Assembly (NCBI GenBank): GCA_965205025.1
Contig: CBDBFU010000011.1
Span: 96,001-160,000, forward strand
Reading direction: 5' to 3'
Origin: Candidatus Poribacteria bacterium
Lineage (GTDB): Bacteria; Poribacteria; WGA-4E; WGA-3G
Length of the DNA stretch: 64,000 nucleotides
Within the stretch, counting starts at the first letter, position 1; every line of letters starts with the position of its first letter. The translations under genes and the position numbers were made by a program. The notes under the pieces were generated by a model. The model searched no databases and was not told the origin of the DNA. It saw only the letters and a program-made list of their open reading frames with translations. This document shows positions 3,946 to 64,000 of the stretch, piece by piece.

Positions 3946-3978
3946 ATATTCCTCCAAATTAATCTCTATAGTTTAATG

Positions 3979-19431: not shown

Positions 19432-20496
19432 ATGGCATCGAAACAGAAAAAAGTCCGGGTAGCAGTGGTAGGAATGGGAATTGGTAGACCGAATGGTGCT
19501 GCACTATCAAGAAATCCAAGAGGTGAAGTGGTTGCACTTTGTGATCTGGAAGAAGAACGAATGAAAGCATTCGCTAAGGATTTACCGAGTAAAGTTGAAT
19601 TCTATACTGATTACAAAAAGATGTGCAAAGCAGATGACATTGATGCTGTCTTTGTTGGAACACCAAATCAATGGCATGCACCCATCGCTATGGAAGCAAT
19701 TAACAATGGAAAGCATGTGATGGTTACCAAACCGTTAGCAGATTCTGAAGAAGCTGCTGCTGAATTAGTTGATGTAGCAGAAGCATCAGATGTGGTTAAT
19801 ATGATGTCTCTTTCCACACGATTCGGTCGCCAATGTCAATACCTTGGTAAACTATATCGTGATGACTATTTTGGTGAGATATATTATGCCAGAGCAAGAA
19901 GCGTCCGTAGAAGTGGTATACCTGATTGGAATCTCGGATTTATTCAGAAAGGTGGAGGTGCATTCCGAGATATGGGGGTACATGTTCTTGATTCTGTTTG
20001 GTGGATTATGGGGATGCCAAAACCCGTCTCTGTTCTTGGGGCTGCAGGTGCAAAATTCGGTCCGAAAGGTCTCGGATATTGGAAGGGAGTAAAAGCAAAG
20101 AAAGAACTCTATGAAAAATACGATTCCGATGATTATGCTGGTGGCTTCATTACCTTTGAGAATGGTATAGGTTTACAAGTTGAAAGTTTCTGGGCATCAC
20201 ATCAACCTGGAGAATTTCAGATCGAACTGTTTGGAACTGAAGCTGGAGCAACAATGGATCCACTTAAAGCCTACCGTACTGATAAAAACGGAGAATTTGA
20301 AGATATTGATCTTAAACCACCAAAAAGCAAATACGAACAGACATGGGATGCAATCGCAGACCATTTTATTGAGTGTATTTTGGATGATGTGGAATGCCAA
20401 GCCCCCCTTCGTCATGGATTAATTGTCCAAAAAATGATGGAAGGTCTACTTAGAAGTGGTGAAACTGGACGTGAGGAACTTATTGAGGTTGAATAA
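19432..20496 (+). CDS. Gfo/Idh/MocA family oxidoreductase
   Basis: VAVVGMG, GKHVMVTKP, GGGAFRDMGVH. Confidence 0.92.
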   Translation: MASKQKKVRVAVVGMGIGRPNGAALSRNPRGEVVALCDLEEERMKAFAKDLPSKVEFYTDYKKMCKADDIDAVFVGTPNQWHAPIAMEAINNGKHVMVTKPLADSEEAAAELVDVAEASDVVNMMSLSTRFGRQCQYLGKLYRDDYFGEIYYARARSVRRSGIPDWNLGFIQKGGGAFRDMGVHVLDSVWWIMGMPKPVSVLGAAGAKFGPKGLGYWKGVKAKKELYEKYDSDDYAGGFITFENGIGLQVESFWASHQPGEFQIELFGTEAGATMDPLKAYRTDKNGEFEDIDLKPPKSKYEQTWDAIADHFIECILDDVECQAPLRHGLIVQKMMEGLLRSGETGREELIEVE

Positions 20497-21197
20497 TGAG
20501 CATTGACAAATCAACATTACAAAGTGACTTTGAAAATACCGGATTCGCAATTGTACCTAATCTGTTTTCACGTGATGAAGCACAACGACTAAAGCAGGAA
20601 TGTATTGATATTCTAAAGGCTGTAAAGGAAGAAACAGGGCATGAGGCAGGTAATGGGGTATTAGTAGGATTAGCTGCGCGGAGTCCAGTATTTCAAGAAG
20701 CTGTAGGTGATGGACGTTTACTCGATGTATTAGAGAAGATACTTGCACCGAATATCGAATTTCTAAGTGATAAAGTCGTATTTAAAAGTGAAACCATGAC
20801 ATTTGCAAGTCCATGGCATCAAGATTGGCACTATTGGCATGGGGCACACAAATTCTCTATTTGGGTAGCTCTCGATGATGCTACTGTGGACAATGGTTGT
20901 CTAAAACTCTTCCCAGGCTCACATAAATCCGCAATTGTACATGATGGTGATGCAAGTGATGGATACGGTTTCGGAAATAGACTTCGACCAGATGCCGTGG
21001 ATGAAAACCTTGCTGTAACCGCAGAAATAGAAGCAGGGGGTGCTGTCTTCTTTCATGACCTTACACTCCACTCAAGTCATCCGAACATCTCTGGTGAAGA
21101 ACGATGGGTATGGATACCAACCTATCGTGATGCTAAAGCAGAGGATAACGATTATCCATGGGCTGTTGCAGCGAAAGTAGTACGCGGGAATAACTAA
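20496..21197 (+). CDS. PhyH family Fe(II)/2OG dioxygenase
   Basis: PWHQD, WVALDDATVDNGCL..PGSH, LHSSHPN...R. Confidence 0.92.
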   Translation: MSIDKSTLQSDFENTGFAIVPNLFSRDEAQRLKQECIDILKAVKEETGHEAGNGVLVGLAARSPVFQEAVGDGRLLDVLEKILAPNIEFLSDKVVFKSETMTFASPWHQDWHYWHGAHKFSIWVALDDATVDNGCLKLFPGSHKSAIVHDGDASDGYGFGNRLRPDAVDENLAVTAEIEAGGAVFFHDLTLHSSHPNISGEERWVWIPTYRDAKAEDNDYPWAVAAKVVRGNN

Positions 21198-25100: not shown

Positions 25101-25580
25101 TTATAGTAATTCCGATAGTTTTGATCCACACCTTGCTATTTTGATATCTGATGAATCACCTCTAAGTACCACTCTGGAGTAAGATTTTCTCAATTGTCTA
25201 ATCTCAGAATTGGAAATACCATTGTGGAGAAGTAAAGGAATGCATATAACATCTACATTCATGGGGATATAGCCTTTAGCGAAATCAACACCACCTTTTA
25301 ATTGTTTAACTGCTTTATTAGCTTCTGCATTTCCTCCCTTGAGTTCCATTGGTACTACTACAAACTTATTTGACTGGTCAAAGTAAAAGAGTACACACTC
25401 ACATTGATTTTCACTATCACGTCCATCTGGATATACAGAATCAAGATCAACAATTACTCGATCATCCTCTGAAACATTAGTTAGGTTAACTCTACATTTA
25501 CCTTTTTTAAATATGTTCCCTTTAAATAAGTGCTCTTTACCGATTTTATTCCGTATACTCTGTAGTATCTTACTCTTCAC
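25101..25580 (-). CDS. Small putative PD-(D/E)XK-like nuclease coupled to the ABC ATPase
   Basis: CECVLF...VPMELKGG...AVKQL; 4-nt overlap with the ATPase stop. Confidence 0.6.
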   Translation of the reverse strand: MKSKILQSIRNKIGKEHLFKGNIFKKGKCRVNLTNVSEDDRVIVDLDSVYPDGRDSENQCECVLFYFDQSNKFVVVPMELKGGNAEANKAVKQLKGGVDFAKGYIPMNVDVICIPLLLHNGISNSEIRQLRKSYSRVVLRGDSSDIKIARCGSKLSELL

Positions 25581-27055
25581 TCGTGCTTATCTCCTGTCTT
25601 TTCCATGAGTAAGGTTCGTAGATCTACAGATTGATTGTATAACCCCTCCGCAACTTCCCCATAATCCATCGGTTCAAAACCGTTAATTGGATCAAAAATT
25701 ATTTCCTCAACTGGTTTGTCAGAATGAAACCACCATGTACCAACCTCATCTGCTGTAAGCCAAGATTCTGACTCGGTTTGATTCTCTCCTCTTTTCTTCA
25801 TTTCACCAATGCGAACTAAGTTACTAATCTGTTCAAGGAACCACTCACTATGTGTTGTAATAATCACACGGACTCCTGCTCTTACTAATTTAGCTAATGT
25901 AATTGCTACTTGTGTCTGAGCACCAGGATGTAAATGGGATTCTGGTTCTTCAATTATGAGGGTATCTCCCCGTTTAACAATTCCACGTAAAAACAAGACC
26001 AATGGAGTAAGTTCTGATACCATAGATGAGGATTGATTCATTTGAAAATTCTTATTTGTTTTATTTGGGTGATAAAGGAATTCTGGGTATGCTGACGGAG
26101 CTGTTCGGTTAACTTGTATCTTCCCTCCCAGTACCTCTTCCTCTAATTTATCTGCGATTTGTCGTATTTTATTGTCACTTCTACTTCGTTTATTTTGCTC
26201 TTTATAATGTATGATAAACTTAAGAAAATCTACAATCATACCTGAAAATGTAGATATTTCAGGAAAAAGTTCTATTCCTATACGAGATGAACGTTCTACA
26301 AGTGAACTGGCAATTACACCATGACTCTGCATAATTCCACTTCGTGCAGCAGGTAGGTAGTATGATTTTCTTCTCTGTTTAAAGAAAGAAGAATGTAGAT
26401 ATTCATTCAGCTCCTCAAGACCAAGTGTCTTTTGTAACTTCTTCTTACCACTAGACAATATTACTAAATCCGGATTTATGATTCCTTCTACTACGGGTTT
26501 CTTAGTACCAGAACAATTCAGACTAAAATTCCAAAGATTCTTTTTTCCATCATCAACTTTTATAGAAACAGATAGTCGACTTGACTTATTGCCTGTATTA
26601 CGTCTCAAGTTAGAGATTGACTCGTGGTCAAAACATCTCTTAAGCTCTTCTATCAAAAAAGATGAATCCTTAAAATCTGAGATAAGATCGGTATATATTC
26701 TCTGTGGTAGATCAGAAAAAGTGAAGGGTTGATCAATATTATTCAGTTTTTCAAGAGTATTACGTATATCTTCCTTTTCTGATTCAGTTTCTGCTTCGTT
26801 AATCCTATAGAAGTAGTTTTGAATGAGAAAATAGTGTAATTGATAATGAGTAGATATAGACCAAGGAAATTGTGGAAAACCATCAAATGCACGATGCATG
26901 GCATAAATGAGTGCTGAAAGATAGGTCTTCCCTGAATTACTTTCTCCAACAAACACAGTTAATGGACGGAGATCAATTTCAGCACTTTTTATAGGTCCAA
27001 AGTTTTGAGCTGAAACTTGAATTTTCTGATTTCTTGAACTTCTAATATTTCTCAT
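25577..27055 (-). CDS. ABC-type ATPase (AAA_15/AAA_21, OLD/AbiE-like)
   Basis: NFGPI, Walker A GESNSGKT, LIIEEPESHLHP, ITTHS. Confidence 0.88.
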   Translation of the reverse strand: MRNIRSSRNQKIQVSAQNFGPIKSAEIDLRPLTVFVGESNSGKTYLSALIYAMHRAFDGFPQFPWSISTHYQLHYFLIQNYFYRINEAETESEKEDIRNTLEKLNNIDQPFTFSDLPQRIYTDLISDFKDSSFLIEELKRCFDHESISNLRRNTGNKSSRLSVSIKVDDGKKNLWNFSLNCSGTKKPVVEGIINPDLVILSSGKKKLQKTLGLEELNEYLHSSFFKQRRKSYYLPAARSGIMQSHGVIASSLVERSSRIGIELFPEISTFSGMIVDFLKFIIHYKEQNKRSRSDNKIRQIADKLEEEVLGGKIQVNRTAPSAYPEFLYHPNKTNKNFQMNQSSSMVSELTPLVLFLRGIVKRGDTLIIEEPESHLHPGAQTQVAITLAKLVRAGVRVIITTHSEWFLEQISNLVRIGEMKKRGENQTESESWLTADEVGTWWFHSDKPVEEIIFDPINGFEPMDYGEVAEGLYNQSVDLRTLLMEKTGDKHE

Positions 27056-31951: not shown

Positions 31952-32761
31952 CTATTGTGAAGTGGTAGGAATACCCGAATCCATAACAAGTGGAAAATGG
32001 TCACCTGCCAGTTTTTCTCCATTATTCACAGTGACAAAAGGTTTCATTACATGATTGCCACTCTCATCATATAATGTCTCGCTTGTCATATAATGTACTG
32101 CTATCGCACGTCTGGGACTTCCACTCTTATTGTCATGAGATCCATGCCAAGTTAGTGAGTGATGATAATGGACATATCCTTTTGGTACAGGGCAAAGTTC
32201 CACATCCAATTCATTATCCTCAAATTTTTCTGGCATAGAATGTATATCTGGCACAGTATGTAAGAATGAAATCTGATTTCCCCATTTATATGAACCTGGG
32301 ACCATACGCATACACCCATTACTTTCATCAACATCATCTAATGCTACCCAACCTGTAACTTGACTTGTCTTTGGTGTAAGTATAGGCCAGTAGGGTGAAT
32401 CCTGATGCCACATGTTAACACCACCTACCTGCGCAGGTTTGTATTGTATCTGATCATGCCAAACTCTAACTTCTGTGGCAGATGTTAACTGTCCTATCTC
32501 TTCAACAATAGAAGGATTGTATACCAATTCATGATAGGCAGAACTCGCTTCCCAAATATTCACTATTTGCCAGACAGGAGTCTCTTCCTTACCGCCAAGG
32601 TTAACAATATGGACGGGTTGTGGGATATCCTCTTTTTTGTAATCATCTATGACCCGTGTCAATTCAGATCGTAATTCGTCAACCTGGTCATCACTTAATA
32701 CACGACTTCCAAGGACAAAGCCCTTCTCACTAAATGTGTCGATTTGGGCTTGATTCAGCAT
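31952..32761 (-). CDS. PhyH family Fe(II)/2OG dioxygenase (tandem paralog 1)
   Basis: WHQD, VALDDVDESNGCM..PGS, WHGS...RRA. Confidence 0.92.
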   Translation of the reverse strand: MLNQAQIDTFSEKGFVLGSRVLSDDQVDELRSELTRVIDDYKKEDIPQPVHIVNLGGKEETPVWQIVNIWEASSAYHELVYNPSIVEEIGQLTSATEVRVWHDQIQYKPAQVGGVNMWHQDSPYWPILTPKTSQVTGWVALDDVDESNGCMRMVPGSYKWGNQISFLHTVPDIHSMPEKFEDNELDVELCPVPKGYVHYHHSLTWHGSHDNKSGSPRRAIAVHYMTSETLYDESGNHVMKPFVTVNNGEKLAGDHFPLVMDSGIPTTSQ

Positions 32762-32884: not shown

Positions 32885-33697
32885 TTACGATACTGCTTTC
32901 GTTGGATTACCAGATTCCATTACAAGCGGAAAATGGTCACCTGTAAGTTTATCTCCATTATTGACGGTTACAAACGGTTTCATTAAGTGGTTTCCACTTT
33001 CATCGTAGATTGTCTCACTGGTCATATAATGAACTGCTATTGCTCTCCGAGCAGCATCGCTTGTGTTGTCATGTGAACCGTGCCAAGTTAAAGAGTGATG
33101 ATAATGGACATGACCTTTCGACACAGGACATAGTTCCACAGATAGATCATTCTCTTCATAATTATCAGGCATTGTATGTATATCTGGTAGTGTCCGTAAG
33201 AAATCCATCTGACTACCCCAGTGGTATGATCCTGGAACCATTCGCATACAACCGTTATTTTCATCAACATCATCCAATGCAACCCAGGCTGTCACTTGGC
33301 TTGTTTTCGGCATGAGTATTCCCCATAAAGGAGAATCTTGATGCCATCGATTAACACCACCTATTTGTGGGGGTTTGTATTGAATTTGGTCGTGCCAAAC
33401 ACGTAACTCTATCGAAGAGGTTAACTGCCCTATTTCTTCAACAACGGTTGGATTATATATAAGTTTGTGAAAAGCATGACTTGCTTCCCATATATTTACA
33501 ATCTGCCAAACAGGACTCTCTTCTTTTCCACCAAGATTGGCAATGCGAACAGGCTGTTTTACATCAGGTTTCTCATATTCATCAATCACCCTTGCTAATT
33601 CAGAGCGCAATTCCTCAACTTCATCATCAGATAAAACACGGTTTCCAAGGAGAAACCCCTTCTTTTGAAACAAATCCACCTGTGATTGAGTAAGCAT
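32885..33697 (-). CDS. PhyH family Fe(II)/2OG dioxygenase (tandem paralog 2)
   Basis: Same motifs; collinear with 31952..32761. Confidence 0.92.
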   Translation of the reverse strand: MLTQSQVDLFQKKGFLLGNRVLSDDEVEELRSELARVIDEYEKPDVKQPVRIANLGGKEESPVWQIVNIWEASHAFHKLIYNPTVVEEIGQLTSSIELRVWHDQIQYKPPQIGGVNRWHQDSPLWGILMPKTSQVTAWVALDDVDENNGCMRMVPGSYHWGSQMDFLRTLPDIHTMPDNYEENDLSVELCPVSKGHVHYHHSLTWHGSHDNTSDAARRAIAVHYMTSETIYDESGNHLMKPFVTVNNGDKLTGDHFPLVMESGNPTKAVS

Positions 33698-37364: not shown

Positions 37365-37371
37365 AATGAAG

Positions 37372-37398
37372 TAAGGACGGACATAGTGTCCGTCCTTA
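37372..37398. terminator. Hairpin between convergent genes
   Basis: TAAGGACGGACA-TAG-TGTCCGTCCTTA perfect 12-bp stem. Confidence 0.7.
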
Positions 37399-37448
37399 TT
37401 ACAAAATAGTTGAATGACACTATAGAATATCATTCATGTATATGATAT

Positions 37449-38834
37449 TTATAGATTATATCCACGTTCGTTGTGCTGTGATAGATCAAGCCCCATCATT
37501 TCGTCATCGCCCTCAACGCGTAATCCAACAATAGCGTCAACGATTTTTAGGATTATAAACGATAGTATTCCACTCCAAATAATGGTTATGATAATACTGA
37601 GTAATTGTGCCCAGACTTGTTGTCCTATTGAGATACCTTCGGTTAAACCAGCACCGCCTAAAGCTGCATCAGCACATATTCCTGTCAATACAGCACCTAC
37701 TATCCCACCGATACCGTGTACACCAAATGCATCTAACGAGTCATCATACCCAAGTTTTGCTTTTAAAGTTGTAGCACCCCAGAAACAAATAGCTCCTGAG
37801 AGGAATCCTATTATCAGTGCACCGATCGGTCCAGCAGTTCCTGAAGCAGGGGTTATTGCAACCAATCCGGCAACTGCACCAGTGACTATACCTAATACAC
37901 TGGGTTTACCGTGTTTAATCCATTCAATAAACATCCAAGTGATTGCAGCGGTGGCAGTAGAAACTTGTGTAACAAGTAGTGCCATTCCAGCAGTACCATC
38001 TGCAGCCAATTCACTTCCAGCATTAAAACCGAACCAACCTACCCAAAGCATTGATGCCCCAACAACAGTAAGAGTTAAACTGTGTGGTGGCATGGCTGTA
38101 GTTTGATATCCGATTCTTTTTCCAACTAAAATTGCTGCTACTAATGCTGCAATTCCTGCATTAATATGGACAACTGTACCACCTGCAAAATCAAGAGCAC
38201 CAATTATGTCTCCAAATAGTGAACCATCACCTGACCATGCCATATGGCAAAGTGGAGCATAGACGATAATTGACCATAGAATCGAAAAGATCAACATTGC
38301 TGAAAACTTCATCCGTTCTGCAAAAGCACCAGCAATCAAGGCTGGTGTAATAATAGCAAAAGTCAACTGGAATGCAAGAAAAACTGTTTCAGGTATAGTT
38401 CCATGTAAACTGTCAACATTAACCCCAGTCAGGAATATTTTATCCAATCCTCCAATAAATGAGTTGAATGTAATTTTCCCTGCTTCCATACCAGCAGTGC
38501 TAAAGGCTAAACTGTAACCACAGATGATCCACAATACAGTGATGATTCCTGTCAAAGCAAAACACTGCATGAGAACTGAGAGTACATTCTGTACACGTAC
38601 AAGTCCACCATAAAATAATGCAAGTCCTGGTATCGTCATAAATAACACAAGTGCGGTTGCGGTTATCATCCAAGCAGTATCCCCTGAGTTGAGTTCGGAC
38701 GTTGCTTCCGCAGTAGTTTCCTGTGCAAATAAAAGGTTGGGTAATCCTGTAAATAAGAATATTAGAACTAAAGCACCAATTATAGTGTAACTAATACGTT
38801 TCCTTGTAAATTGCGATGCACATCGTTGTTGCAT
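37449..38834 (-). CDS. amtB: Ammonium transporter, AmtB-type
   Basis: GDTAW, FQ/FAIIT..AERM, DFAGGTVVHINAG, WFGFNAGS, DDSLDAFGVHG (both pore His present). Confidence 0.96.
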   Translation of the reverse strand: MQQRCASQFTRKRISYTIIGALVLIFLFTGLPNLLFAQETTAEATSELNSGDTAWMITATALVLFMTIPGLALFYGGLVRVQNVLSVLMQCFALTGIITVLWIICGYSLAFSTAGMEAGKITFNSFIGGLDKIFLTGVNVDSLHGTIPETVFLAFQLTFAIITPALIAGAFAERMKFSAMLIFSILWSIIVYAPLCHMAWSGDGSLFGDIIGALDFAGGTVVHINAGIAALVAAILVGKRIGYQTTAMPPHSLTLTVVGASMLWVGWFGFNAGSELAADGTAGMALLVTQVSTATAAITWMFIEWIKHGKPSVLGIVTGAVAGLVAITPASGTAGPIGALIIGFLSGAICFWGATTLKAKLGYDDSLDAFGVHGIGGIVGAVLTGICADAALGGAGLTEGISIGQQVWAQLLSIIITIIWSGILSFIILKIVDAIVGLRVEGDDEMMGLDLSQHNERGYNL

Positions 38835-38986
38835 CTGTTCCTCCTTAGTAGAAACAAGTTTGAGTAACTTGTTTAGTAATAACTGTATGGCAGACTTAAT
38901 TGTCTACCTTAGGTTTTAATATTATACTTGAAATTCTTAGAACTATATCTATAGGTATTGATGTACTTATTGAGTAATGATTTGGA

Positions 38987-39015
38987 ATTTTAGCAGAATA
39001 ACATTCAGGTATCAA
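38987..39015 (-). promoter_or_regulatory. Sigma-70-like promoter for amtB
   Basis: TTGATA-N17-TAAAAT on the minus strand. Confidence 0.45.
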
Positions 39016-39051
39016 GTAATATGACCAATTGATGTGGTGTTTATACCTAAC

Positions 39052-39125
39052 AGGAATAGGAACGACTACAGACTCCGAAGTAAACCCAGGGATAAGTTTA
39101 TCTTCCTGCAGACGTCCCTATTCTT
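39052..39125 (-). other. Long imperfect stem-loop between the two amt genes
   Basis: GAATAGGGACG...CGTTCCTATTC outer stem with inner CTGCAG/CTGTAG and GAAGATAAAC/GTTTACTTC pairings. Confidence 0.5.
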
Positions 39126-39164
39126 AATTATCCTTCCAAATTGGAAGGTATTTGCAGAATTAAT

Positions 39165-40547
39165 CTATCTTATAGATGAAACATTGAAGTCTGGATAGGC
39201 ATTGGCACCGTGTTCACCATAATCAAGTCCTTCCATTTCTTCCTCTTCTGTAACACGTAAACCAGTCACTGCTTTAATACCATAGAAGAGAATGAATCCT
39301 GTAACCAGACACCATACAAATACCGCTACAACACCAACTATTTGTGCCCAGAGGAATCCGAAACCACCCCCAAAGATAATGCCTTGTTCACTATGGAAGA
39401 AACCGAGTAGGATGGTTCCTAATGCACCACATGTTCCGTGAACAGAAATCGCACCAACTGGGTCATCAATACGTAGGTTTTCAAGTAGAAGCACACTGAG
39501 GACAACGACGATGCCACCTAAAGCACCAATTATGAATGCCGAAGAAGGACTAACGAACGCACATCCAGCTGTAATTGCTACGAGACCGGCAAGGGCACCA
39601 TTTAGTGCCATACCTGCATCCGGTTTACCAAGAAAAATCCAAGCTGTAATCATAGCAGTAATAGCACCTGCAGCGGCGGCTATGTTAGTGGTAATTGCAA
39701 TTAGAGAAATATCTGCAGCGTCTGCCCCCATCTGACTGCCGGGGTTGAATCCAAACCATCCTAACCAGAGAATGAACACACCGAGTGCTGCTAACGGTAG
39801 ATTATGACCAGCAATAGGTCTGGGTTTTCCTTCGTTATCATACTTACCAAGTCGGGGACCTAAGACAATAGCACCAGTCAAGGCAAGCCATCCCCCAGTA
39901 GAGTGTACGACAGTCGAACCCGCAAAATCGAGCATACCATCACCGAAACTTGACAGCCATCCACCACCCCAAATCCAATGACCAACGATAGGATAAATTA
40001 GACCAGTAATAAAGACACTATATATTAAATAACTCTTAAATTGTGTTCTTTCAGCCATAGCTCCAGAGACAATTGTTGCGGCAGTTGCTGCAAATACCAA
40101 TTGGAAAAGCCATGCTGCATAGGTTGGAACTGAACTCCATTCTAAAGAACTAAAAACACTAGTACTTGTATCTGCTCCTGCTGTTAAAGATTCAGAAGGA
40201 ACAAACCACCCACTCGTCCCCATAAAAGCATTGCCTGCACCAAACATTATGGCGAACCCGATTGCCCAATAGGCGATGGAACCCATAGAAAAATCCATTA
40301 GGTTTTTCATAAGGATGTTTACAGCATTTTTTGCACGTGTGAAACCCGATTCCACCATTGCGAATCCTGCCTGCATGAAGAAAACAAGAAACGCAGCGAC
40401 AAGCACCCAAAGCGTATCACCCATGTATTTTGAATCCTCAACCTTTTCGAGTTTGCCATCAGAATCGACTAAACCGTTTAGGGCAAAGGCGTTAAGACTC
40501 AATAAACATGTTAAGGTAAGAACCGTAATGATTATCCGTTTATTCAT
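39165..40547 (-). CDS. amt: Ammonium transporter, Amt1-type
   Basis: FFMQAGFAMVESG, KNAVNILMKN, DFAGSTVVH, WFGFNPGS, DDPVGAISVHG; start MNKR follows AAGGAG. Confidence 0.95.
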   Translation of the reverse strand: MNKRIIITVLTLTCLLSLNAFALNGLVDSDGKLEKVEDSKYMGDTLWVLVAAFLVFFMQAGFAMVESGFTRAKNAVNILMKNLMDFSMGSIAYWAIGFAIMFGAGNAFMGTSGWFVPSESLTAGADTSTSVFSSLEWSSVPTYAAWLFQLVFAATAATIVSGAMAERTQFKSYLIYSVFITGLIYPIVGHWIWGGGWLSSFGDGMLDFAGSTVVHSTGGWLALTGAIVLGPRLGKYDNEGKPRPIAGHNLPLAALGVFILWLGWFGFNPGSQMGADAADISLIAITTNIAAAAGAITAMITAWIFLGKPDAGMALNGALAGLVAITAGCAFVSPSSAFIIGALGGIVVVLSVLLLENLRIDDPVGAISVHGTCGALGTILLGFFHSEQGIIFGGGFGFLWAQIVGVVAVFVWCLVTGFILFYGIKAVTGLRVTEEEEMEGLDYGEHGANAYPDFNVSSIR

Positions 40548-40696
40548 TTGAAATAGATCTCCTTTTAACATCCAACTTTCTTCATAGACAGAGGAAATAT
40601 GACCACATACGATAATCATGAACCATTGTATTCTTGAAGTTCGCGAATCAAGGTTCATGTATTTTCTTGATTCGCGATGGACTAACTAATTACACC

Positions 40697-41407
40697 TTAC
40701 CAAGTACGAAGGAAGGTCATTCTTCCTGTAAGTCCAGATTCTTCGTCTTCTTTCTGTGTTTCAAAACCACCAAAGATTCCAAGTGTATTGTTTTCACCGT
40801 ATCCCAGATTCAGACGCAAACCAACAGCCAAACTTCCAAGACCACTCTCATCACCTAAATCAATAGTAGCTTCGACTTGAGGACCAATAGCCACGGTATC
40901 GCTAAGTGAATATGTGATAAAATCACGTGTGTAAAGCGAATCAGCGGCTTCTTCATCAAAAGGGGTATTGAAGAATCCTTGGATCCAAGATTCAAAATAA
41001 ATGGAACCTGCACTTAGAATTGTAAAAAGTTGAGGAGCAATAAGTGATGATGGTCCGTTTGGTGTTGCATAATCAAATCCGATACCAACCATTGGAGTAA
41101 AACTGAGTGACAATGAATCACTTTCAACAGCGGTAAGTGCCAATCCAAGATCAAACTCCCCAAAGGTATCAACAACATAAATATCACTTGCGATTGAAAG
41201 ACCACCCAAGGAATGGGTTGCCCCAAACCAAATTTGTGTCCCTAAACTATCTGTATCAGTACGGAACCAACCATCTATACTTGACTCTTCCATTTCCATC
41301 TCTTCACCTGCCCCATGAGCATCAGCAAAAACGATAGGAACGGATGTTACTGCGAGAATACAAACTATTGATAATAATTGAACTAACCATAATCCTTTAA
41401 TCTTCAT
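40697..41407 (-). CDS. Uncharacterised exported beta-barrel-like protein (putative outer-membrane channel), paralog 1
   Basis: Signal peptide (VFA|DAH), alternating amphipathic strands, C-terminal TFLRTW. Confidence 0.6.
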   Translation of the reverse strand: MKIKGLWLVQLLSIVCILAVTSVPIVFADAHGAGEEMEMEESSIDGWFRTDTDSLGTQIWFGATHSLGGLSIASDIYVVDTFGEFDLGLALTAVESDSLSLSFTPMVGIGFDYATPNGPSSLIAPQLFTILSAGSIYFESWIQGFFNTPFDEEAADSLYTRDFITYSLSDTVAIGPQVEATIDLGDESGLGSLAVGLRLNLGYGENNTLGIFGGFETQKEDEESGLTGRMTFLRTW

Positions 41408-41543
41408 TAGAATCTCCTTAGTATTTTCGATTCAAACTTTTTACGAGCATATTGAAATCATCTATGTCAGTCATTGAAACTATTCTTGATTCCGACATCA
41501 TCTTGTGATAGAATCTGTGCTTAGTTGCACTATAGTGCTTTGA

Positions 41544-41559
41544 AGCAATATACGTGCCA
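41544..41559 (-). promoter_or_regulatory. Sigma-54 (-24/-12) promoter
   Basis: Minus strand TGGCACG-TATA-TTGCT, an exact TGGCACG-N4-TTGCW match, upstream of the barrel-amt genes. Confidence 0.8.
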
Positions 41560-41722
41560 ATTACTTAAAATCCATTTATTATATCTATTGTTATCCTCTT
41601 CAAACTCCTATCAACCTAAGACACCTTATAGTTAAATCCCTTTAATGACTATCTATGATAGATTTTATGTGTGAAATAATTGGATTTTATTCTGTACCTA
41701 TTGTAGTAAAATCAGGTTAAAA

Positions 41723-43141
41723 ATGCTGAAAATTTCATCAGAAAACTGCCTAAAAAATAAGCATATAATACTAATAATTATAGTCTTTATTGGAGCATTT
41801 TTACGATTTTGGAATCTTGGAAACTGGAGTTTTTGGATTGATGAAGTTCTTACTGTACTTGATTCTAAAGAAATCTCTCTAAATAATTCTCCCATAAATC
41901 CAATTCCATATTTTGCAACAAAATTCTCAGTTTATATTAGTGATAAGCTATCATTCCTATTAGGTGGGAGTGAGGAATGGAAATACAGGTTTATCTTTTG
42001 CATTGCAGGTATACTTTCTTTATGGGTTATTTTTTATCTTGCACAGACCTTATATGATAAGAAAGTTGGAGTACTTGCTGCCTTATTTGTTTCGTTATCT
42101 AATTGGCATATATTCTGGTCTCAGAATACCCGTTCATATATATTTACATTTTTTTTTGGGGCATTGACTGCATGGTTTTTCTATAGGTCGTTTGAGAAAG
42201 ATTCCTTACTATTAACAATAAGTGCGTTGCTTTCTTGTGTTTGCCTGATCCTGTCACATCTTCTTGCAGCTGCAATTATACCAGCGTTAGCAGTCTATTC
42301 AATTTCTCTTCTGTTAGAAAATAGAAGTCGTAGACGAATCATCAACCTTCTTATTTTTTTTATTCCTTTTACTCTCCCGCTATTTTTACTATTAATTCCG
42401 TATATACGAAGCCATTTATTTTCTGGTTGGGGACATAATGAATGGGGTCGGAGTCCATTTTATATTATACTAACTCTGGTACAAGGGGTCACAATACCTA
42501 TAGCAGTTACAGCTTTCATCTCTGGTCTTGTTAGTCGAAAAGATAAACCTACCCGCTTTTTACTCTGTTTTGCTGTTATACCGCTTATTCTGCTAATTGT
42601 AGCATCGCAGTTTCAGAATGTGGCTGGTTATTATCTGTTTTGGTCAACACCTGCATATTTTATACTCTCTGCATTTGTTTGTATTCACCTATGGGGTGTA
42701 ATAGGTGACAATAGGCATATCTTATTAAAGTCTCTACTCCCGTTAGTATTAATTATGGGACTTGTATCGCAGGATTATCTGTATTTTAAGTATGAGAACG
42801 GAGGGAGACCAAAATGGAGGGAATCCTTTAATTACCTTGAATTACAAATGGATGCAGAAGATAGGGTAGTACTTTCAGAACCACGGATGGGTGAGTTTTA
42901 TCTGCCAGAAATGGAGCAAGTTTACATAGGAGAATTGATAAAGGATAAGGAGGATTTTGAAGAAAGAGTTGCATCAAATAAGAACCGTTGGTGGTTTCTT
43001 GTGGATGTCGCAAGTTTTAACGTTTTTGATGCGGATCAGAAAATTAGAAATTGGATAAGTAGACGTTGTCGTATGGTACATTCTGTGCCAGCATTCTCTC
43101 GTGCAAAAGATAGAACTATTCATATTTATCTATATGAATAG
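41723..43141 (+). CDS. GT-C fold membrane glycosyltransferase (GT39/ArnT/PMT-like)
   Basis: LRFWNLG..SFWIDE, multiple TM segments, SQNTRSY. Confidence 0.82.
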   Translation: MLKISSENCLKNKHIILIIIVFIGAFLRFWNLGNWSFWIDEVLTVLDSKEISLNNSPINPIPYFATKFSVYISDKLSFLLGGSEEWKYRFIFCIAGILSLWVIFYLAQTLYDKKVGVLAALFVSLSNWHIFWSQNTRSYIFTFFFGALTAWFFYRSFEKDSLLLTISALLSCVCLILSHLLAAAIIPALAVYSISLLLENRSRRRIINLLIFFIPFTLPLFLLLIPYIRSHLFSGWGHNEWGRSPFYIILTLVQGVTIPIAVTAFISGLVSRKDKPTRFLLCFAVIPLILLIVASQFQNVAGYYLFWSTPAYFILSAFVCIHLWGVIGDNRHILLKSLLPLVLIMGLVSQDYLYFKYENGGRPKWRESFNYLELQMDAEDRVVLSEPRMGEFYLPEMEQVYIGELIKDKEDFEERVASNKNRWWFLVDVASFNVFDADQKIRNWISRRCRMVHSVPAFSRAKDRTIHIYLYE

Positions 43142-43154
43142 TTCAGTAAGAATA

Positions 43155-43180
43155 TAGGCGTGGACAGATTCCACACCTAT
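43155..43180. terminator. Hairpin between convergent genes
   Basis: ATAGGCGTGGA-CAGAT-TCCACACCTAT. Confidence 0.55.
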
Positions 43181-43188
43181 ATCGTAGA

Positions 43189-43923
43189 TTACCATCTCCG
43201 AGTAAAATTCATTCTACCGGTAAGTCCGGTTTCATCTTCCATCTTTTCAGTCTCATATCCAACATATATACCGAGTGTATTATTCTCACCATAATTAAGG
43301 TTCAGACGCCCTCCAAAATTTAGAGCCCATAGTCCACCTTCATCACCGAGCCCCATCACTGTTTCAAACTGTGGACCAACAGCCACTATATCGCTTATAG
43401 CATATGTAATGTAAGTCCGGTTGTAAACTTCATTCAAGCTTTGGTCATCAAATATGGTTTTGAATGTGCTGATTGTCCAATGGAAACCAAAGATTTTACC
43501 AGCAGGTAGGATAGCGAAGAATTGTGGGTATAAAGCATAAGGTCCATCTGAGTTGGCATAATTAAACCCAACACCGAGCATTGGTGTTAACAGAAGTGCC
43601 ATGCTGTCATTTGCGATTACAGGGAATGTAATACCCATATCATATTCACCCAAAAACTGCCGTGAACCATCGGGTCCAGGATTACCATTCACATAGATAT
43701 TTGAATCAAATGAAATACCGCCGCCGAGTGGATGACTGGCACCAATTAGAAAATAGGGACCTAAACTATCCACATCGATCTGGAACCATCCAGTAATCTT
43801 CGGTTTTTCTTCCATTGCTTCCTCTTTGGCTTCATGACCATCTGCAAATGCACCAGTCCAACCAACTAATACCATACCTATGATTAAACAATAAGTCACA
43901 AAACGAAATCTGTAAAATTGCAT
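43189..43923 (-). CDS. Uncharacterised exported beta-barrel-like protein, paralog 2
   Basis: Collinear with 40697..41407 (GWF..D.DSLG, TPM.G.GF, GPQ.E, YGENNTLGI, GLTGRM.F.R.W); start MQFY follows AAGGAG. Confidence 0.6.
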   Translation of the reverse strand: MQFYRFRFVTYCLIIGMVLVGWTGAFADGHEAKEEAMEEKPKITGWFQIDVDSLGPYFLIGASHPLGGGISFDSNIYVNGNPGPDGSRQFLGEYDMGITFPVIANDSMALLLTPMLGVGFNYANSDGPYALYPQFFAILPAGKIFGFHWTISTFKTIFDDQSLNEVYNRTYITYAISDIVAVGPQFETVMGLGDEGGLWALNFGGRLNLNYGENNTLGIYVGYETEKMEDETGLTGRMNFTRRW

Positions 43924-44039
43924 CAATTTCTCCTTTACTTTTGACACATTATTTTTGTATATTCATTCAGGTAACAGATAAAATAATGTAAATAAGTTAT
44001 CTACTACCATTTCAAGAGTATATATAACAATCGAAATAA

Positions 44040-59916: not shown

Positions 59917-61215
59917 TCATTTAGTAGAGGATAACAAATTACATTGACCTTTGAAGTATGGACATTTATCTATAATATCATCAATTTCTTGTACTGTGAA
60001 CCCAATCAATTTAAGAAATTGGAGTCGAAAAAGTACATTCATTTTAATACAAAGAAAATTTAATAGCTGCCCTTTAGCAGATTCTTGCTCTAATTCTGGA
60101 TTAAGATGTGTGCGATAGTTACGTGTTTTAACAATCTTGTCAATCATCCCTGGTCTTCTGTCTCCACACATATATTTTTCAAATGGATCGGTCAATTGCT
60201 CTATCCTATCTCTTAGTGGCATTTTATTACCTGTTAGGCTATGGAATGCTTCTAAGCCTTGTATCAAAGTTAGAAAATGCATATTCAATGATGGTACCGT
60301 ACCAGTTTTTGTACGGAAGTATAATTCTAAGGCAGGTGATATCTCATCGTAATTTTCTATCCATAGATTTATCATACTTTCAAAACGCTGTTGGTAGTCT
60401 GTAAACTTAAACAACATATCAAGCTGATTGATATCGGGTTCATTTTCAGCATAAGGCCAAGTTGGATTATAAACCCCAACAGTTATCGGATAAGTGCGTC
60501 CATCTCCAAAATCTTGTTGTAGACTTTCAGATGTAGTTGACATGTTATCTATAGACACTATTTCATTCATAACAAAACACAGAAATCCTGCAATCATATT
60601 TGCCACAGATATGAATTCGTCTAACCCACAACTATCCTCTGAAACCAATTTGAAGTAAGTATTTTCGATCACTTCTGCATTCCTAACTATTGGAAGTATA
60701 GGAGGAGTGTATGCAAAAGTTATATACAACTGCATTCCATTTCTAAGTTCGAAATCTAAATTTGATGGTCTTTTATAGGATATTGTCAAAGCATTCTCTA
60801 AATTGTCTTCAACTTTAATACCACTGATTCCCACCCATTCTTCAATTCCTTCTACAGAAAAACTGAAAGTATTAAATTGTAGATTTGGGTTTTCATCATA
60901 AGGAAAACTGGTTAATAACCTGTCTGCTAAAATAACATCACCTCCCATCACTCTACCATGTGTAATATTAGTCCTTTTTTGTTGGCTATAACACCTATCA
61001 ATTAGAATAGGTCCATCCTTTTCAACATGACCAATTATCTGGTTTAAACCTTCAGTTGGTCCAAATATTGATTCCAAATTGGTATCAATCGGTTGCATAA
61101 GGTCAAGTTTTATGGTACCACCATCTGATATTGTAAGGGTACCGTCGATTTCTCTTTCTGGTTTAGAAGGCAACCAAAACCTGCCGGATCTCTTTATCTC
61201 TTCTTTAATTCTCAT
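59917..61215 (-). CDS. ApeA-like HEPN ribonuclease (ApeA N-terminal domain + HEPN)
   Basis: GRFWLP....IDGTLT N-terminus, FLTLIQGLEAFH, RNYRTH (RX4H). Confidence 0.8.
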   Translation of the reverse strand: MRIKEEIKRSGRFWLPSKPEREIDGTLTISDGGTIKLDLMQPIDTNLESIFGPTEGLNQIIGHVEKDGPILIDRCYSQQKRTNITHGRVMGGDVILADRLLTSFPYDENPNLQFNTFSFSVEGIEEWVGISGIKVEDNLENALTISYKRPSNLDFELRNGMQLYITFAYTPPILPIVRNAEVIENTYFKLVSEDSCGLDEFISVANMIAGFLCFVMNEIVSIDNMSTTSESLQQDFGDGRTYPITVGVYNPTWPYAENEPDINQLDMLFKFTDYQQRFESMINLWIENYDEISPALELYFRTKTGTVPSLNMHFLTLIQGLEAFHSLTGNKMPLRDRIEQLTDPFEKYMCGDRRPGMIDKIVKTRNYRTHLNPELEQESAKGQLLNFLCIKMNVLFRLQFLKLIGFTVQEIDDIIDKCPYFKGQCNLLSSTK

Positions 61216-61462
61216 TGGATTTTCCTTACTGTTTTCTTATTTCATATAATCGTTTATGATTGAGTGTATTGTCATAGTATTCAATGAGAATTGTTCAGGA
61301 TTTTCTCACAAGTACTTGACATCTTACAACTAAAATTTCGTAGTTAAATTTGGGTTTTGGAATTTAACCCCTTATGGGTTACAATATGTGTTAACTATCA
61401 AATTACGTTGTCATAACTATTAACATTTCAACTAAATGTATAATAATTAGGAGAAATATAAA

Positions 61463-61846
61463 ATGCAAAGAATTTACACCACAACAACGACTAAAACTGG
61501 GATAAATGGAACGATCTATCGGAAAAAAGGTGAAACTAAGTATATTCGAGTAGGTAAAATTACTGGATGGACTTTACAACTTAAACAAGAAAGAATCCAA
61601 GCAACTTTACAGGGTGGAATTGAAGACTTTTCTGGTCATCAAGACTGGGAAGTGGATGTAGATGGAATTTTCATTGATGATGTTACCAAAATCGGTGAAG
61701 TATATCTAAAATTACACTCCTTTGAGGGTACAAAAGTAACTTATGAAGGAACTGGAATTTTACAGGATTTCTCTCCCACAAATGAACCAGATAAATTCAG
61801 TGGAAAGATAATGGGGAATGGTCGACTTGAAATTTCAGAAACATGA
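61463..61846 (+). CDS. Orphan phage tail-tube (major tail)-like protein
   Basis: VGKITGWTL...E.I.AT..G...G.QDWEVDVDG...YEGTG....FS.....FSG.I.GNG.L pattern; AGGAG RBS. Confidence 0.55.
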   Translation: MQRIYTTTTTKTGINGTIYRKKGETKYIRVGKITGWTLQLKQERIQATLQGGIEDFSGHQDWEVDVDGIFIDDVTKIGEVYLKLHSFEGTKVTYEGTGILQDFSPTNEPDKFSGKIMGNGRLEISET

Positions 61847-61899
61847 TTTTTTCAAAACAGTCATCAATAAGAAATCCAATGGAAGTTGGTAGGATAGCA

Positions 61900-64000
61900 T
61901 TACTCATCAGTTATCTCAGAAGGTAAACCCTCAATTATCTTAGTAGACTCAACACTTACGTAAACAATCCGTTCTATCGCAGTGATAAGGTCCCGAGGAT
62001 TTTCAAACCAACCGTTTGGATCATTGACTATACCACTTTTCTTATCTGTTGTTATTTTATAACGATTGATAAACCATTCCAACGGAGTTCTCCCATTGAC
62101 TACATAACGATGTGCTTCCTCTGGAATTCCTGATATTTGGATATGTTCATTAATGATGAGCACATCTTTCTTGTTTTTATCTTTGTATTTCATTGCCTTT
62201 GTTCCCAGTAGGAAATACTCAGGTTCCTCTTGATACAGTAATTGTTGTTGTTGTTGGGCAGACTCAACTTTGAGATTGGAGTATTTTTCACATGTTTCAT
62301 AATTAAGATGTAGATCTGCAAGTGCTTTACCAGCATCTGCAAAGGCGCGGAAGTCTGGAGCATAAGGGATACGTGGGAGCATCTTTGACAAGTCGTTTGC
62401 GAACTGTTCTTTATAACTTGGAGAGTGTAGGATCCCGTAAACATAGTTGAAGATGTCATTTCTTGTGATTGAGTCGTCGCAGTAGTTTTCTTTGAAGGCG
62501 TGCAATGCTGTATCTGATATGTTGTCAATACGTATTCTTTCGTTTTCCATCGTAATTTGCGATTGGGCAGTTGGTTTGAGATAACGCCATCGAGGGAAGC
62601 ATTGTGCTGCTTCAACAAAATGCAAGTCTGGCATTTTATTAGTTATAAGAGAAGAAAATAACTTGCTACCTCCTCTTCCAGGGAAGCATATCACGCGGTT
62701 TTTACTTGATTTATTTGGAAAAATTAAATCCTGCTGGTATTTGCAATTTGCAAATGTGTAGTCAACATAACCATTTGATTTTACAAATGGTCGGTAAGCC
62801 ACCGTTCTTATATAACTCTCATCAAATTCGGTAGTTCTTCTTCGTCTTAGATTATTCTCAAGTTCCCTATCCCATCTGACATTTGCTGTGTGTCTACGTG
62901 CCACAACGTCCTCTGAGAGTTCAGTATTTTCCTCAAGCTCAGAAAGTGCATTTAGATAATCCTGTGTCATTAATTCGGCATTTGCAGCACAAGCATTCCG
63001 TGAGAAATTATAGATGTAGGCATCTCTACTCGTAGCCAATCCTCTTGAATATAACACGAATATTGCATTATCTGCTTTTCCTGCTTTTGCTTCTTTTGTT
63101 CCAAGTGGGTAGAAATCTGTAAATACATCGCTGCGTTGATTAATCCAATCGTAGTATTGGTTTGGTAGGATAACTTGCCAATCATTGAAACGTTTTACTG
63201 AAGCCGTTTCACTAAGTATTCCTAACTTCTGTTTACGTTTTAAATGTCCCCCAATATCTCTGTAATGAATTCGGTATTCCTCGTGCACAGCATCTGTATT
63301 TTTTACCAGTATCGTGATTGCCACTGGTGATTGTGTAGCATTACCGAAGACACCTTCTCCCTGATATTTTCCTTGTTCTCCGTGTATCCTTGCATCTCCT
63401 AATAAGTTAAGAACATAAATTGAGTTGAACTCTTTTGGTAAACATGCACGGATTCCCGCGTCAACGTTTCCATCTATCCAAGAAGCAGGTGTGACAAAGG
63501 CGACAATTCCATTTTCTTGTTCTTGAAGTCTATCAGTTGCCCACCGGAACGCCATCTTGTATGTGTCATAAAGGCTACTCTTCAAGGTAGCTGTCGTATA
63601 TGCTGCGTAGGTTTCACTAATACGCTTTTCAAGTTCAGGATACTCAACGTTAGGGTTATCATCCGCAGAACTTTTTTGCCATGCTGACCATGGTGGATTG
63701 CCCATAATAACCTCTATCGGAATATTTTGCTGACGTTCAACTCGTTCGTTGTTTTCTACCATCTGTTGTTCTTCAGGAAGAAGGGGTGGGTCTTTCTCTG
63801 CTTTGTATAGATTGAATGTATCTGTTAGAACGATACCGTCAAAAGAAACATGTCTTTCGTTTTCTCCATGCTGTCCTTGATAGGCTTCTTCAATATTAAC
63901 AGATGCAATGTAGTATGCAAGTAAGAGGATTTCGTTTGCGTGGAGTTCCTTCTTATATTTCCTTTCGAGATCTTCAGATTGGAGGAGTCCAGACTGCAGT
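61900..64000 (-). CDS. Type ISP restriction-modification enzyme (methyltransferase + C-terminal specificity domain), 5' part outside the window
   Basis: LHANEILLLAYYIASVNIE, NIVLTDTF-like segment, VIMGNPPW, AFRWATDR, YRPF, YVYGILHS..Y, YVVNGRTPLEW; frame open to the window edge. Confidence 0.92.
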   Translation of the reverse strand, partial: LQSGLLQSEDLERKYKKELHANEILLLAYYIASVNIEEAYQGQHGENERHVSFDGIVLTDTFNLYKAEKDPPLLPEEQQMVENNERVERQQNIPIEVIMGNPPWSAWQKSSADDNPNVEYPELEKRISETYAAYTTATLKSSLYDTYKMAFRWATDRLQEQENGIVAFVTPASWIDGNVDAGIRACLPKEFNSIYVLNLLGDARIHGEQGKYQGEGVFGNATQSPVAITILVKNTDAVHEEYRIHYRDIGGHLKRKQKLGILSETASVKRFNDWQVILPNQYYDWINQRSDVFTDFYPLGTKEAKAGKADNAIFVLYSRGLATSRDAYIYNFSRNACAANAELMTQDYLNALSELEENTELSEDVVARRHTANVRWDRELENNLRRRRTTEFDESYIRTVAYRPFVKSNGYVDYTFANCKYQQDLIFPNKSSKNRVICFPGRGGSKLFSSLITNKMPDLHFVEAAQCFPRWRYLKPTAQSQITMENERIRIDNISDTALHAFKENYCDDSITRNDIFNYVYGILHSPSYKEQFANDLSKMLPRIPYAPDFRAFADAGKALADLHLNYETCEKYSNLKVESAQQQQQLLYQEEPEYFLLGTKAMKYKDKNKKDVLIINEHIQISGIPEEAHRYVVNGRTPLEWFINRYKITTDKKSGIVNDPNGWFENPRDLITAIERIVYVSVESTKIIEGLPSEITDE

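Follow-up and report, generated by a model that had tools for sequence, protein, structure and literature searches.

A candidate outer-membrane barrel encoded ahead of two ammonium transporter genes behind a conserved sigma-54-type promoter in Candidatus Poribacteria

The stretch of DNA analysed here, referred to as the window, comprises 64,000 nucleotides (nt) of the Candidatus Poribacteria contig CBDBFU010000011.1 and has a guanine plus cytosine (GC) content of 37%. Three successive minus-strand genes fill positions 37449..41560 of the window, namely an open reading frame (ORF) of 236 amino acids (aa), an Amt ORF of 497 aa and an AmtB-like ORF of 461 aa. The first of these encodes an exported protein with the predicted fold of an outer-membrane barrel, hereafter the barrel protein, and the other two encode ammonium transporters, hereafter Amt1 and Amt2. 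The genes and the elements around them are as follows, given in the direction of transcription.

41545..41560, minus strand: well-supported candidate sigma-54 (-24/-12) promoter TGGCACGTATATTGCT, an exact motif that is conserved at orthologous loci
40697..41407, minus strand: barrel gene, encoding a 236-aa exported protein with a signal peptide, a short acidic linker and a predicted 12-stranded barrel, ending in ...GRMTFLRTW
40641..40677, minus strand: perfect inverted repeat with 12-bp arms (TCGCGAATCAAG and CTTGATTCGCGA, 13 nt apart), located past the stop codon of the barrel gene and ahead of the start of Amt1
39165..40547, minus strand: gene for the ammonium transporter Amt1, 460 aa from the ATG at 40547, within a longest ORF that extends to 40658 (497 aa)
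39054..39148, minus strand: pair of stem-loops downstream of Amt1, the small one spanning 39148..39132 and the long one 39123..39054
38987..39015, minus strand: putative sigma-70-type promoter with an extended -10 element (TTGATA, 17 nt, (TG)CTAAAAT), matching at 10 of 12 positions and with the TG present
38854..38872, minus strand: stem-loop in the leader of the AmtB-type gene (ACAAGTT-ACTCA-AACTTGT), about 10-15 nt before the Shine-Dalgarno (SD) sequence of that gene
37449..38834, minus strand: gene for the AmtB-like ammonium transporter Amt2, 461 aa, PF00909 at an E-value of 1e-116
37372..37398, minus strand: terminator-like hairpin after the AmtB-type gene, with a 12-pair stem that includes 6 GC pairs

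A preliminary description of this DNA had reported an exact sigma-54 motif about 135 nt before an uncharacterised gene, and the site indeed stands there. The motif TGGCACGTATATTGCT lies upstream of the barrel gene with GG at -24, GC at -12 and the spacing TGGCAC-N5-TTGC, and its 3' end sits 137 nt upstream of the barrel ATG at 41407. Taken by itself, this lone site in the window is only suggestive, as the exact TGGCAC-N5-TTGC pattern is found once against 0.08 expected and appears at least once in 8 of 100 shuffled sequences, and the core with one mismatch allowed is found 4 times in the window against 2.48 expected, which is the level of chance. For comparison, related loci were collected, of which 80, all from Poribacteria, were kept as the best of 129 relatives of the barrel protein, and both strands of their DNA (1.93 Mb) were scanned for motifs. 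The pattern TGGCA[CT]-N5-TTGC[AT] occurs 79 times in this locus DNA, and 77 of the 79 occurrences lie just upstream of the barrel gene. Of the 77 Poribacteria loci with an amt-linked barrel gene, 76 have the pattern ahead of that gene; the three loci whose barrel homolog is not amt-linked lack it. It is this conservation at orthologous loci, a phylogenetic footprint, and not the count in the window, that argues for a real promoter, and the motif can be regarded as a well-supported sigma-54 promoter candidate.

The conserved motif is 110-300 nt, mostly about 150-170 nt, away from the ORF of a divergent glycosyltransferase. This gene encodes a PMT_2/ArnT-like membrane glycosyltransferase (41723..43141, plus strand; PF13231, E-value 1e-10); it is without exception the divergent neighbour of the sigma-54 barrel gene, and in most loci it stands between the two barrel paralogs. 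At one locus (L027, positions 5821..5860), from a lineage in which the AmtB-type gene comes directly after the barrel gene, two tandem sigma-54 motifs 24 nt apart were observed before the barrel gene.

The order of genes behind the promoter was mapped by BLAST of every locus ORF against the window proteins. An amt gene follows the barrel gene in 77 of the 80 Poribacteria loci, which is Amt1 in 66 of them and directly the AmtB-type gene in 11. The order of barrel, Amt1, AmtB-type gene and a convergent 669-aa esterase-like gene is found at 59 loci; at 5 loci the same three genes are present with no esterase gene mapped, some of these loci ending soon after the AmtB-type gene, and at 2 loci the barrel gene is followed by Amt1 alone, where the locus sequence ends. 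No amt gene follows the barrel homolog in the other three loci (L078-L080), where the homolog is a third paralog of 51-54% identity; its neighbours in L078 are a transposase, an ABC ATPase and leucine-rich repeat (LRR) proteins. The nearest genomic locus, from a Poribacteria metagenome-assembled genome (MAG; PYJD01000023.1), encodes a protein 96% identical to the barrel protein. The co-occurrence of homologs with amt and with sigma-54 sites, on which the preliminary description had made its proposal of a nitrogen-regulated uptake system depend, is thus borne out by these loci (77 of 80 amt-linked, 76 of those 77 with the motif).

The fold of the barrel protein was modelled with AlphaFold. A family set of 62 diverse members served for a deep alignment, as well as for residue conservation and a Pfam scan, and the deep model reached a predicted local distance difference test (pLDDT) score of 91.3 and a predicted template modelling (pTM) score of 0.79, with pLDDT values of 88.5-91.3 across the five models. 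In it, a helix at residues 6-21 (the signal peptide) leads into an acidic linker of low confidence, and residues 44-235 hold the 12 strands. An earlier model built from a 12-sequence alignment (pLDDT 75.4) likewise has 12 strands. Hydrophobic and polar faces alternate on all 12 strands, and the C-terminus ...FLRTW resembles a beta-signal, the final residue being W or F in 56 of the 62 members. A signal peptide, an even count of amphipathic strands and an aromatic C-terminal end, as known from outer-membrane beta-barrels, are therefore all found in this protein. The exported protein with beta-strand periodicity and a terminal Trp that had been noticed earlier is confirmed in these respects, and both models agree on barrel topology for 40697..41407.

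An exhaustive structural comparison was run with both AlphaFold models against solved structures, and pairs of Z-scores given here refer to the two models. VhGalP (8xua; Z 17.5 and 16.7, 177-178 residues aligned), KdgM (4pr7; Z 16.9 and 16.7) and NanC (2wjr; Z 16.1 and 16.0) scored best, together with the COG4313 channel 4rl8 (Z 16.0 and 15.3), FapF (Z 15.6 and 15.2), the intimin barrel 5g26 (Z 15.5 and 14.8) and PcoB (7pge; Z 13.6 and 13.7, 14% identity). Non-channel neighbours include autotransporter domains (Z 12-14.5), LpxR (Z 12.6) and OMPLA (Z 10.5-11). Foldseek returned OmpG, FapF, KdgM, PcoB and NanC at E-values of 1e-6 to 2e-5, and the lists of structural matches are taken up by barrel folds. 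The 12-stranded monomeric fold of the KdgM class (PF06178; 4pr7, 2wjr, 8xua) is thus matched by the predicted model at Z 16.0-17.5 over 161-178 residues with a root-mean-square deviation of 2.6-3.6. This likeness concerns size and predicted fold, whereas sequence identity to KdgM, NanC and VhGalP is 8-10%, and the present barrel differs from them in standing beside ammonium transporters. The protein is confidently predicted to be an outer-membrane barrel of the small monomeric-porin size class, for which an outer-membrane location and an open pore may be expected.

At the level of sequence, the protein is an unnamed branch of this small-porin structural class that lies outside every curated family. 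A word-indexed search with the barrel protein found 539 relatives at E <= 1e-3. The best 120 of these 539 are 67-96% identical to it, all the named ones among them are a 'hypothetical protein' of Candidatus Poribacteria, and none of the 120 has a precomputed Pfam domain. Neither the barrel protein nor its paralog in the window, described below, gave a Pfam or NCBIfam match at E-values up to 1. The TorF models (PF09694 Gcw_chp / TIGR02001) matched neither paralog, and PF09694 matched none of the 62 members at E-values up to 1, in agreement with the earlier statement that the protein is not TorF. Likewise, the hidden Markov model (HMM) of the KdgM family, PF06178, gave no match in the barrel protein or the 62 members at E-values up to 1, and a profile of the 62 members against PDB sequences returned only a chance match (E 0.24).

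The nearest approach to a curated family was seen with the uncharacterised DUF6733 (PF20507). For 7 of the 62 members, matches to it run colinear with the profile but stay under the gathering score of 27, at 11.7-18.3 bits (best E 0.0017), and the barrel protein itself gave no match. A distant kinship with DUF6733 is plausible on the basis of these matches, and no publication on DUF6733 was found in the literature search. Feature neighbours in the ESM Atlas, which serve as leads only, point in a similar direction. They comprise unnamed clusters whose commonest phylum is Acidobacteriota (score 0.97) and a DUF6733 cluster whose commonest phylum is Bacteroidota (0.97, 188 shared features); apart from DUF6733, the nearest named clusters are those of KdgM (0.95, 165-168 shared features), and TorF clusters also appear (0.95, 155 shared features). 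The 'new channel family' of the preliminary description has to be qualified: no curated family matches the protein, but its fold is that of the known 12-stranded monomeric-porin class, and DUF6733 gives sub-threshold matches.

An exhaustive profile search returned 160 representative clusters (at 50% identity) at E <= 1e-3, of which 55 were at E <= 1e-30. Among distant members, a cluster look-up returned 'hypothetical protein' or no name at all, and a search with a single sequence found 2 proteins. A profile search for distant members gave 18 proteins, two of them named, from a Haliangium sp. and a Myxococcales MAG; these two are the only members outside Poribacteria with names, the rest being unnamed metagenome proteins. 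A tblastn search of plasmid records with three distant members found no relative. In many of the family members listed, an Ala/Pro/Glu-rich linker comes behind the signal peptide; among the 62 members, the median position at which strand 1 begins is residue 62, with the signal peptide counted.

The polar face of the strands, which presumably lines the lumen, is rich in conserved acids. Positions D51, D53, D75, E84, D86, D112, E139, E179 and E216 are acidic in 72-100% of the 62 members, and basic residues on the same face are R49, R161 and R229, at 93-100%, and R198, at 50%. Conserved aromatic residues of the polar face are W47, W60, Y77, Y137, W141, Y159, F163 and F212, and six conserved glycine positions are also located on the presumed lumen face. 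A narrow barrel with a net negative lining and aromatic rings is as would be expected for a cation-selective channel, and the acidic lumen together with the gene context suggests that ammonium or amines might be selected. KdgM-family channels pass acidic sugars through basic-lined pores, so the acid-rich lumen predicted for the Poribacteria barrel would be the opposite of theirs.

Both transporters align over their full length to solved Amt proteins and belong to the Amt/MEP/Rh family. Amt1 matches PF00909 (E 2e-129, 432.2 bits) and TIGR00836 (448.7 bits, above the 343.3 cutoff), and its score against the marine subtype TIGR03644 (432.8 bits) is under the cutoff of 514. Its nearest solved structures are 6eu6 (E 2.3e-85) and 8qj3 (E 5.3e-74), and its Amt clade differs from that of Amt2. 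For Amt2, PF00909 gives 390.4 bits, TIGR00836 gives 452.6 bits (above 343.3), the AmtB equivalog NF007947 gives 465.9 bits, under its cutoff of 657, and the solved AmtB 9cs5 is matched at E 6e-117. The true start of Amt1 is likely the ATG at 40547, which is preceded by the SD sequence AAAGGAG and opens a signal-peptide-like N-terminus; the ATG of the longer Amt1 ORF falls in the loop of the 40677..40641 inverted repeat. On one Poribacteria chromosome (L007) the AmtB-type gene is split into 8635..9096 and 9144..10052, the 153-aa upstream piece carrying the start of the Amt domain; the split reflects a pseudogene, a frameshift or an error of assembly.

Downstream of all three genes, stable RNA structure recurs at many loci, structure being called at z < -2 against mononucleotide shuffles. 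It was found in the 90 nt after the barrel gene at 56 of 77 loci, after Amt1 at 63 of 64, and after Amt2 at 63 of 75. In the window, no T-run follows the inverted repeat at 40641..40677, which is probably an intercistronic stem-loop involved in mRNA stability, processing or partial termination. The 131-nt region after Amt1 folds at -43.8 kcal/mol (z -4.06), and none of 200 shuffles folds as well. The long hairpin between the transporters that had been noted earlier is accordingly present, at 39123..39054, and the stem-loops after Amt1 probably form a transcript end or a barrier before the AmtB-type gene.

The AmtB-type gene had also been credited with a sigma-70-like promoter of its own. Promoter-like hexamer sites are at the level of chance in the window (27 against 23 +/- 5 expected). 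Across the loci, the box TTGA[TC]A-N17-TA[AT]AAT is kept in 36 of 65 Amt1-Amt2 spacers, in otherwise diverged sequence, and occurs 39 times in the 1.93 Mb of locus DNA, which supports the earlier assignment. Further downstream, 60 of 69 anchored leaders contain the pattern ACAAG[C/T]-loop(5-8)-[G/A]CTTGT, among them those of loci in which the AmtB-type gene comes right after the barrel gene. The variable pair of its stem is C:G in 47 cases, T:A in 8, T:G in 5 and C:A in none, though the pattern permitted C:A, these counts being of sequences and not of independent events. A cis-regulatory function, or one in stability, is conceivable for the leader stem-loop, and about 30 nt further upstream of it the box GTTGTCTG[C/T]C recurs. 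A search of positions 37000-44500 against Rfam, at E-values up to 1, found no family for the hairpins or the leader.

No P-II gene accompanies the transporters, as had been stated in the preliminary description. The P-II domain (PF00543) was absent from the 54 window ORFs of at least 80 aa, so that no glnK-amtB pair was found among them. It was also absent from the gap ORFs scanned in related loci, 9 of 25 of at least 70 aa, which included all three plus-strand ones of at least 95 aa; one of the scanned gap ORFs is the N-terminal piece of the split Amt2 mentioned above. A missing glnK beside amt is in itself nothing out of the ordinary; SAR11 is documented as P-II-independent (PMC3870248).

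A second barrel gene, missed in the preliminary description, lies close to the first.

43189..43947, minus strand: barrel paralog, 252 aa from a GTG start, 49% identity, ending in ...FTRRW, not amt-linked

The paralog is located downstream of metallophosphoesterase-cupin-trpF genes, an arrangement that is kept in many Poribacteria loci, and no sigma-54 motif was found before it. Compared with the residues typical of the family, it carries R49Q, W60L, D75N, D112N, Y137F and E139F, by which three conserved acids are lost, and the amt-linked copy retains the lumen residues typical of the whole family. A quick maximum-likelihood tree was made from 27 of the 77 amt-linked copies, 24 trpF-side paralogs, 3 third paralogs and 20 outside sequences, the amt-linked and trpF-side sets being thinned by locus number. 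All Poribacteria sequences fell in one group (support 99), and the trpF-side and third paralogs were joined in a single derived group (support 100) whose long stem measures 0.53 changes per site, with the amt-linked copies short-branched; the root is a midpoint root, which leaves the direction of change unproven. The lost lumen acids and the long branch suggest that the window paralog has a different substrate or role. Since the paralog next to the barrel gene lacks amt linkage, a tie to ammonium does not extend to the whole family, and the link between barrel and nitrogen drawn in the preliminary description stands for the orthologs (amt-linked at 77 of 80 loci) and not for the paralog beside them.

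We consider that the barrel protein may be an inducible, cation-selective outer-membrane channel that feeds NH4+ or small amine cations to Amt1, a reading to which we give a probability of roughly 0.5 because of the acid-rich aromatic lumen and the conserved place before Amt under one sigma-54 promoter. The locus would then be a two-membrane ammonium acquisition unit, in which the sigma-54 promoter drives a bicistronic message for the barrel and then Amt1. Once a sigma-54 activator fires, presumably under nitrogen limitation, the cation-selective channel would be inserted in the outer membrane, and more NH4+, perhaps also methylammonium and other small cationic amines, would flow into the periplasm for uptake by Amt1. 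The stem-loops after each cistron might set the relative transcript levels and end the message, and the AmtB-like transporter, having its own sigma-70-type promoter and leader hairpin, would provide a separately controlled uptake. Some Poribacteria lineages, a minority, have a variant without Amt1, in which the AmtB-type gene comes directly after the barrel gene. Nitrogen control of the promoter is suggested by its sigma-54 type together with the amt linkage. It is a more tentative proposal, possible but not one we would lean on, that with this protein a first case has come to light of an outer-membrane channel dedicated to ammonium and selective for cations, 12-stranded and with an acidic aromatic pore that concentrates NH4+ for Amt. 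The family of such channels would be unnamed, with distant kin in DUF6733, named members in Poribacteria and Myxococcota, and feature-space neighbours in Acidobacteriota.

Several points weigh against the channel that feeds Amt1. NH3/NH4+ is small enough for general porins, and that a dedicated channel is needed at all has been assumed; sigma-54 promoters, moreover, serve many regulons unrelated to nitrogen. Upstream of the promoter, no palindrome or 8-mer is common to all loci and no NtrC-like site was seen across them, clade-specific palindromes alone being present, about 70-95 nt upstream of the sigma-54 motif, and no sigma-54 activator gene is found among the ORFs of the 64-kb window. One amt-linked locus, L034, is without a convincing sigma-54 site in its 406 nt of upstream sequence. 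Co-transcription of the barrel gene and Amt1 is likely despite the stem-loop between them, which nevertheless speaks against a single message. Two Poribacteria paralog lineages are not amt-linked, and the amt link may be peculiar to one phylum, as the loci compared are all from Poribacteria. Finally, several structural neighbours are not solute channels, and the conserved Arg-Asp/Glu residues of the lumen could form a closed salt-bridge network and not a conducting path.

Part of this evidence would be explained if the barrel were an inducible general or broad-specificity porin for amines, urea, amino acids and ammonium, placed beside amt through a common starvation regulon. Same-genome paralogs away from amt are as expected of differently regulated isoforms of such a porin, and the window showed no trimeric porin of the classical type. 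Yet the best-scoring structures, KdgM, NanC and VhGalP, are narrow substrate-specific channels, and the conserved charge-biased lumen and the tight Amt operon (77 of 80 loci) suggest a matched substrate, so that we regard a broad porin as rather unlikely. The nitrogen-responsive porins that have been documented are general or broad: NtrBC controls porin genes in P. putida (PMC4253122), and OmpU of the P-II-less SAR11 is up-regulated under nitrogen limitation, for which the authors suggest a faster diffusion of ammonium (PMC3870248). Both cases also serve as precedents for the channel that feeds Amt1.

A role other than that of a channel, either as a plugged or structural barrel, an anchor, an adhesin base or a lipid-facing enzyme, or as an NlmA-like regulatory or structural accessory of Amt, seems distinctly improbable. 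The intimin barrel 5g26, the autotransporters, LpxR and OMPLA among the structural neighbours would agree with it, but true channels score best (Z 16-17.5), over the non-channel barrels. The conserved lumen pairs of Arg with Asp or Glu could be a closed network, as said above, whereas the six conserved lumen glycines are easier to reconcile with a narrow, open pore than with a packed core. The variable Ala/Pro/Glu-rich linkers could serve as interaction segments; the protein has, however, no passenger, plug or catalytic domain, and consists only of the signal peptide, a short linker and the barrel. The NlmA analogue, for its part, is without a known function (PMC3023670). The least probable of the readings, in our judgement, is that the operon answers to a signal other than nitrogen, such as carbon, stress or a host cue, and that the barrel passes another cation, for instance a metal as with PcoB. 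The absence of an NtrC-type site across the loci and of an activator gene in the window would fit such a signal, as would the presence of the copper-related 12-stranded PcoB among the neighbours (Z 13.6-13.7, 14% identity). Against it, the downstream genes are bona fide Amt-family transporters at 77 of 80 loci, and no metal-handling gene was seen in the neighbourhood.

Compared with known systems, the Poribacteria operon is partly familiar. Dependence on NtrC implies a promoter of the sigma-54 type. The closest documented counterpart, the nlmA-glnK-amtB operon of Herbaspirillum seropedicae, is described as NtrC-dependent and strongly up-regulated under nitrogen limitation (PMC3023670). In both operons a gene for an envelope protein with no assigned function comes at the head, together with an ammonium transporter; the Poribacteria operon differs in being without glnK and in having two Amt clades, the second with a sigma-70-type promoter of its own. 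NlmA is likened here by its published description. An envelope-protein gene heading a nitrogen-regulated amt operon and a starvation-induced porin are thus known already, and the present example is set apart by its protein family, the absence of glnK, the two Amt clades and the split sigma-54/sigma-70 control.

A dedicated outer-membrane channel co-regulated with an inner transporter for a scarce nutrient also has its counterparts in PhoE/OprP with Pst, LamB with MalFGK, and FmdC, the amide/urea porin of Methylophilus, all of which are 16-18-stranded trimers from other families. To our knowledge, none of the channels of these types is dedicated to ammonium, and none of the papers listed in the literature search concerned an outer-membrane channel shown by experiment to be specific for ammonium. 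TorF is similar in length to the Poribacteria barrel. The TorF-like gene that, according to the preliminary description, precedes glnK-amtB in some proteobacteria was not seen here: two proteobacterial amt neighbourhoods scanned with Pfam showed neither TorF nor glnK, and nothing relevant to a TorF-ammonium link appeared in the literature search. In a Cupriavidus amt region, viewed by annotation only, no porin or glnK gene is found upstream of amt, and an annotated porin gene lies downstream of it, beyond a divergent LysR-type regulator gene. A pairing of amt with an outer-membrane protein of another kind was observed on the pPP1 replicon of Persicobacter psychrovividus (Bacteroidota; L081, 1462..5299), where a TonB-dependent receptor gene is directly upstream of amt on the same strand, with no P-II gene between them.

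Ammonium uptake is usually seen as a matter of the inner membrane, that is, of Amt and GlnK, and passage through the outer membrane is assumed to be free via general porins. A conserved sigma-54 operon with a small acid-lined barrel before Amt suggests that regulation in some bacteria extends to the crossing of the outer membrane, and the bacteria concerned are sponge symbionts living on host nitrogen waste. If the barrel is indeed a dedicated ammonium channel, the ammonium permeability of the outer membrane would be both a regulated and a limiting step in Gram-negative bacteria that are oligotrophic or symbiotic. A channel that feeds Amt1 would also give a first function to an unnamed family, and possibly to DUF6733 and to NlmA-type genes before glnK-amtB in Proteobacteria. 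If the channel is unselective, it would be one more starvation-induced porin. The mature protein, of about 200 residues, has no cofactor, and proteins of its class refold well, which makes the hypothesis directly testable in bilayers.

Elsewhere in the window, defence-type genes are located at 59917..63762 and 25577..27055, both on the minus strand. This set comprises an ApeA-like HEPN protein (PF18862/PF18739), a protein with a Type ISP restriction-modification C-terminal domain (PF18135) and an AAA_15/AAA_21 ATPase. In keeping with its assignment to Poribacteria, the window also holds four phytanoyl-CoA dioxygenase (PhyH) genes, at 3220..3957, 20496..21197, 31952..32761 and 32885..33697, as well as several oxidoreductases and proteins with Laminin_G_3 and dockerin domains.

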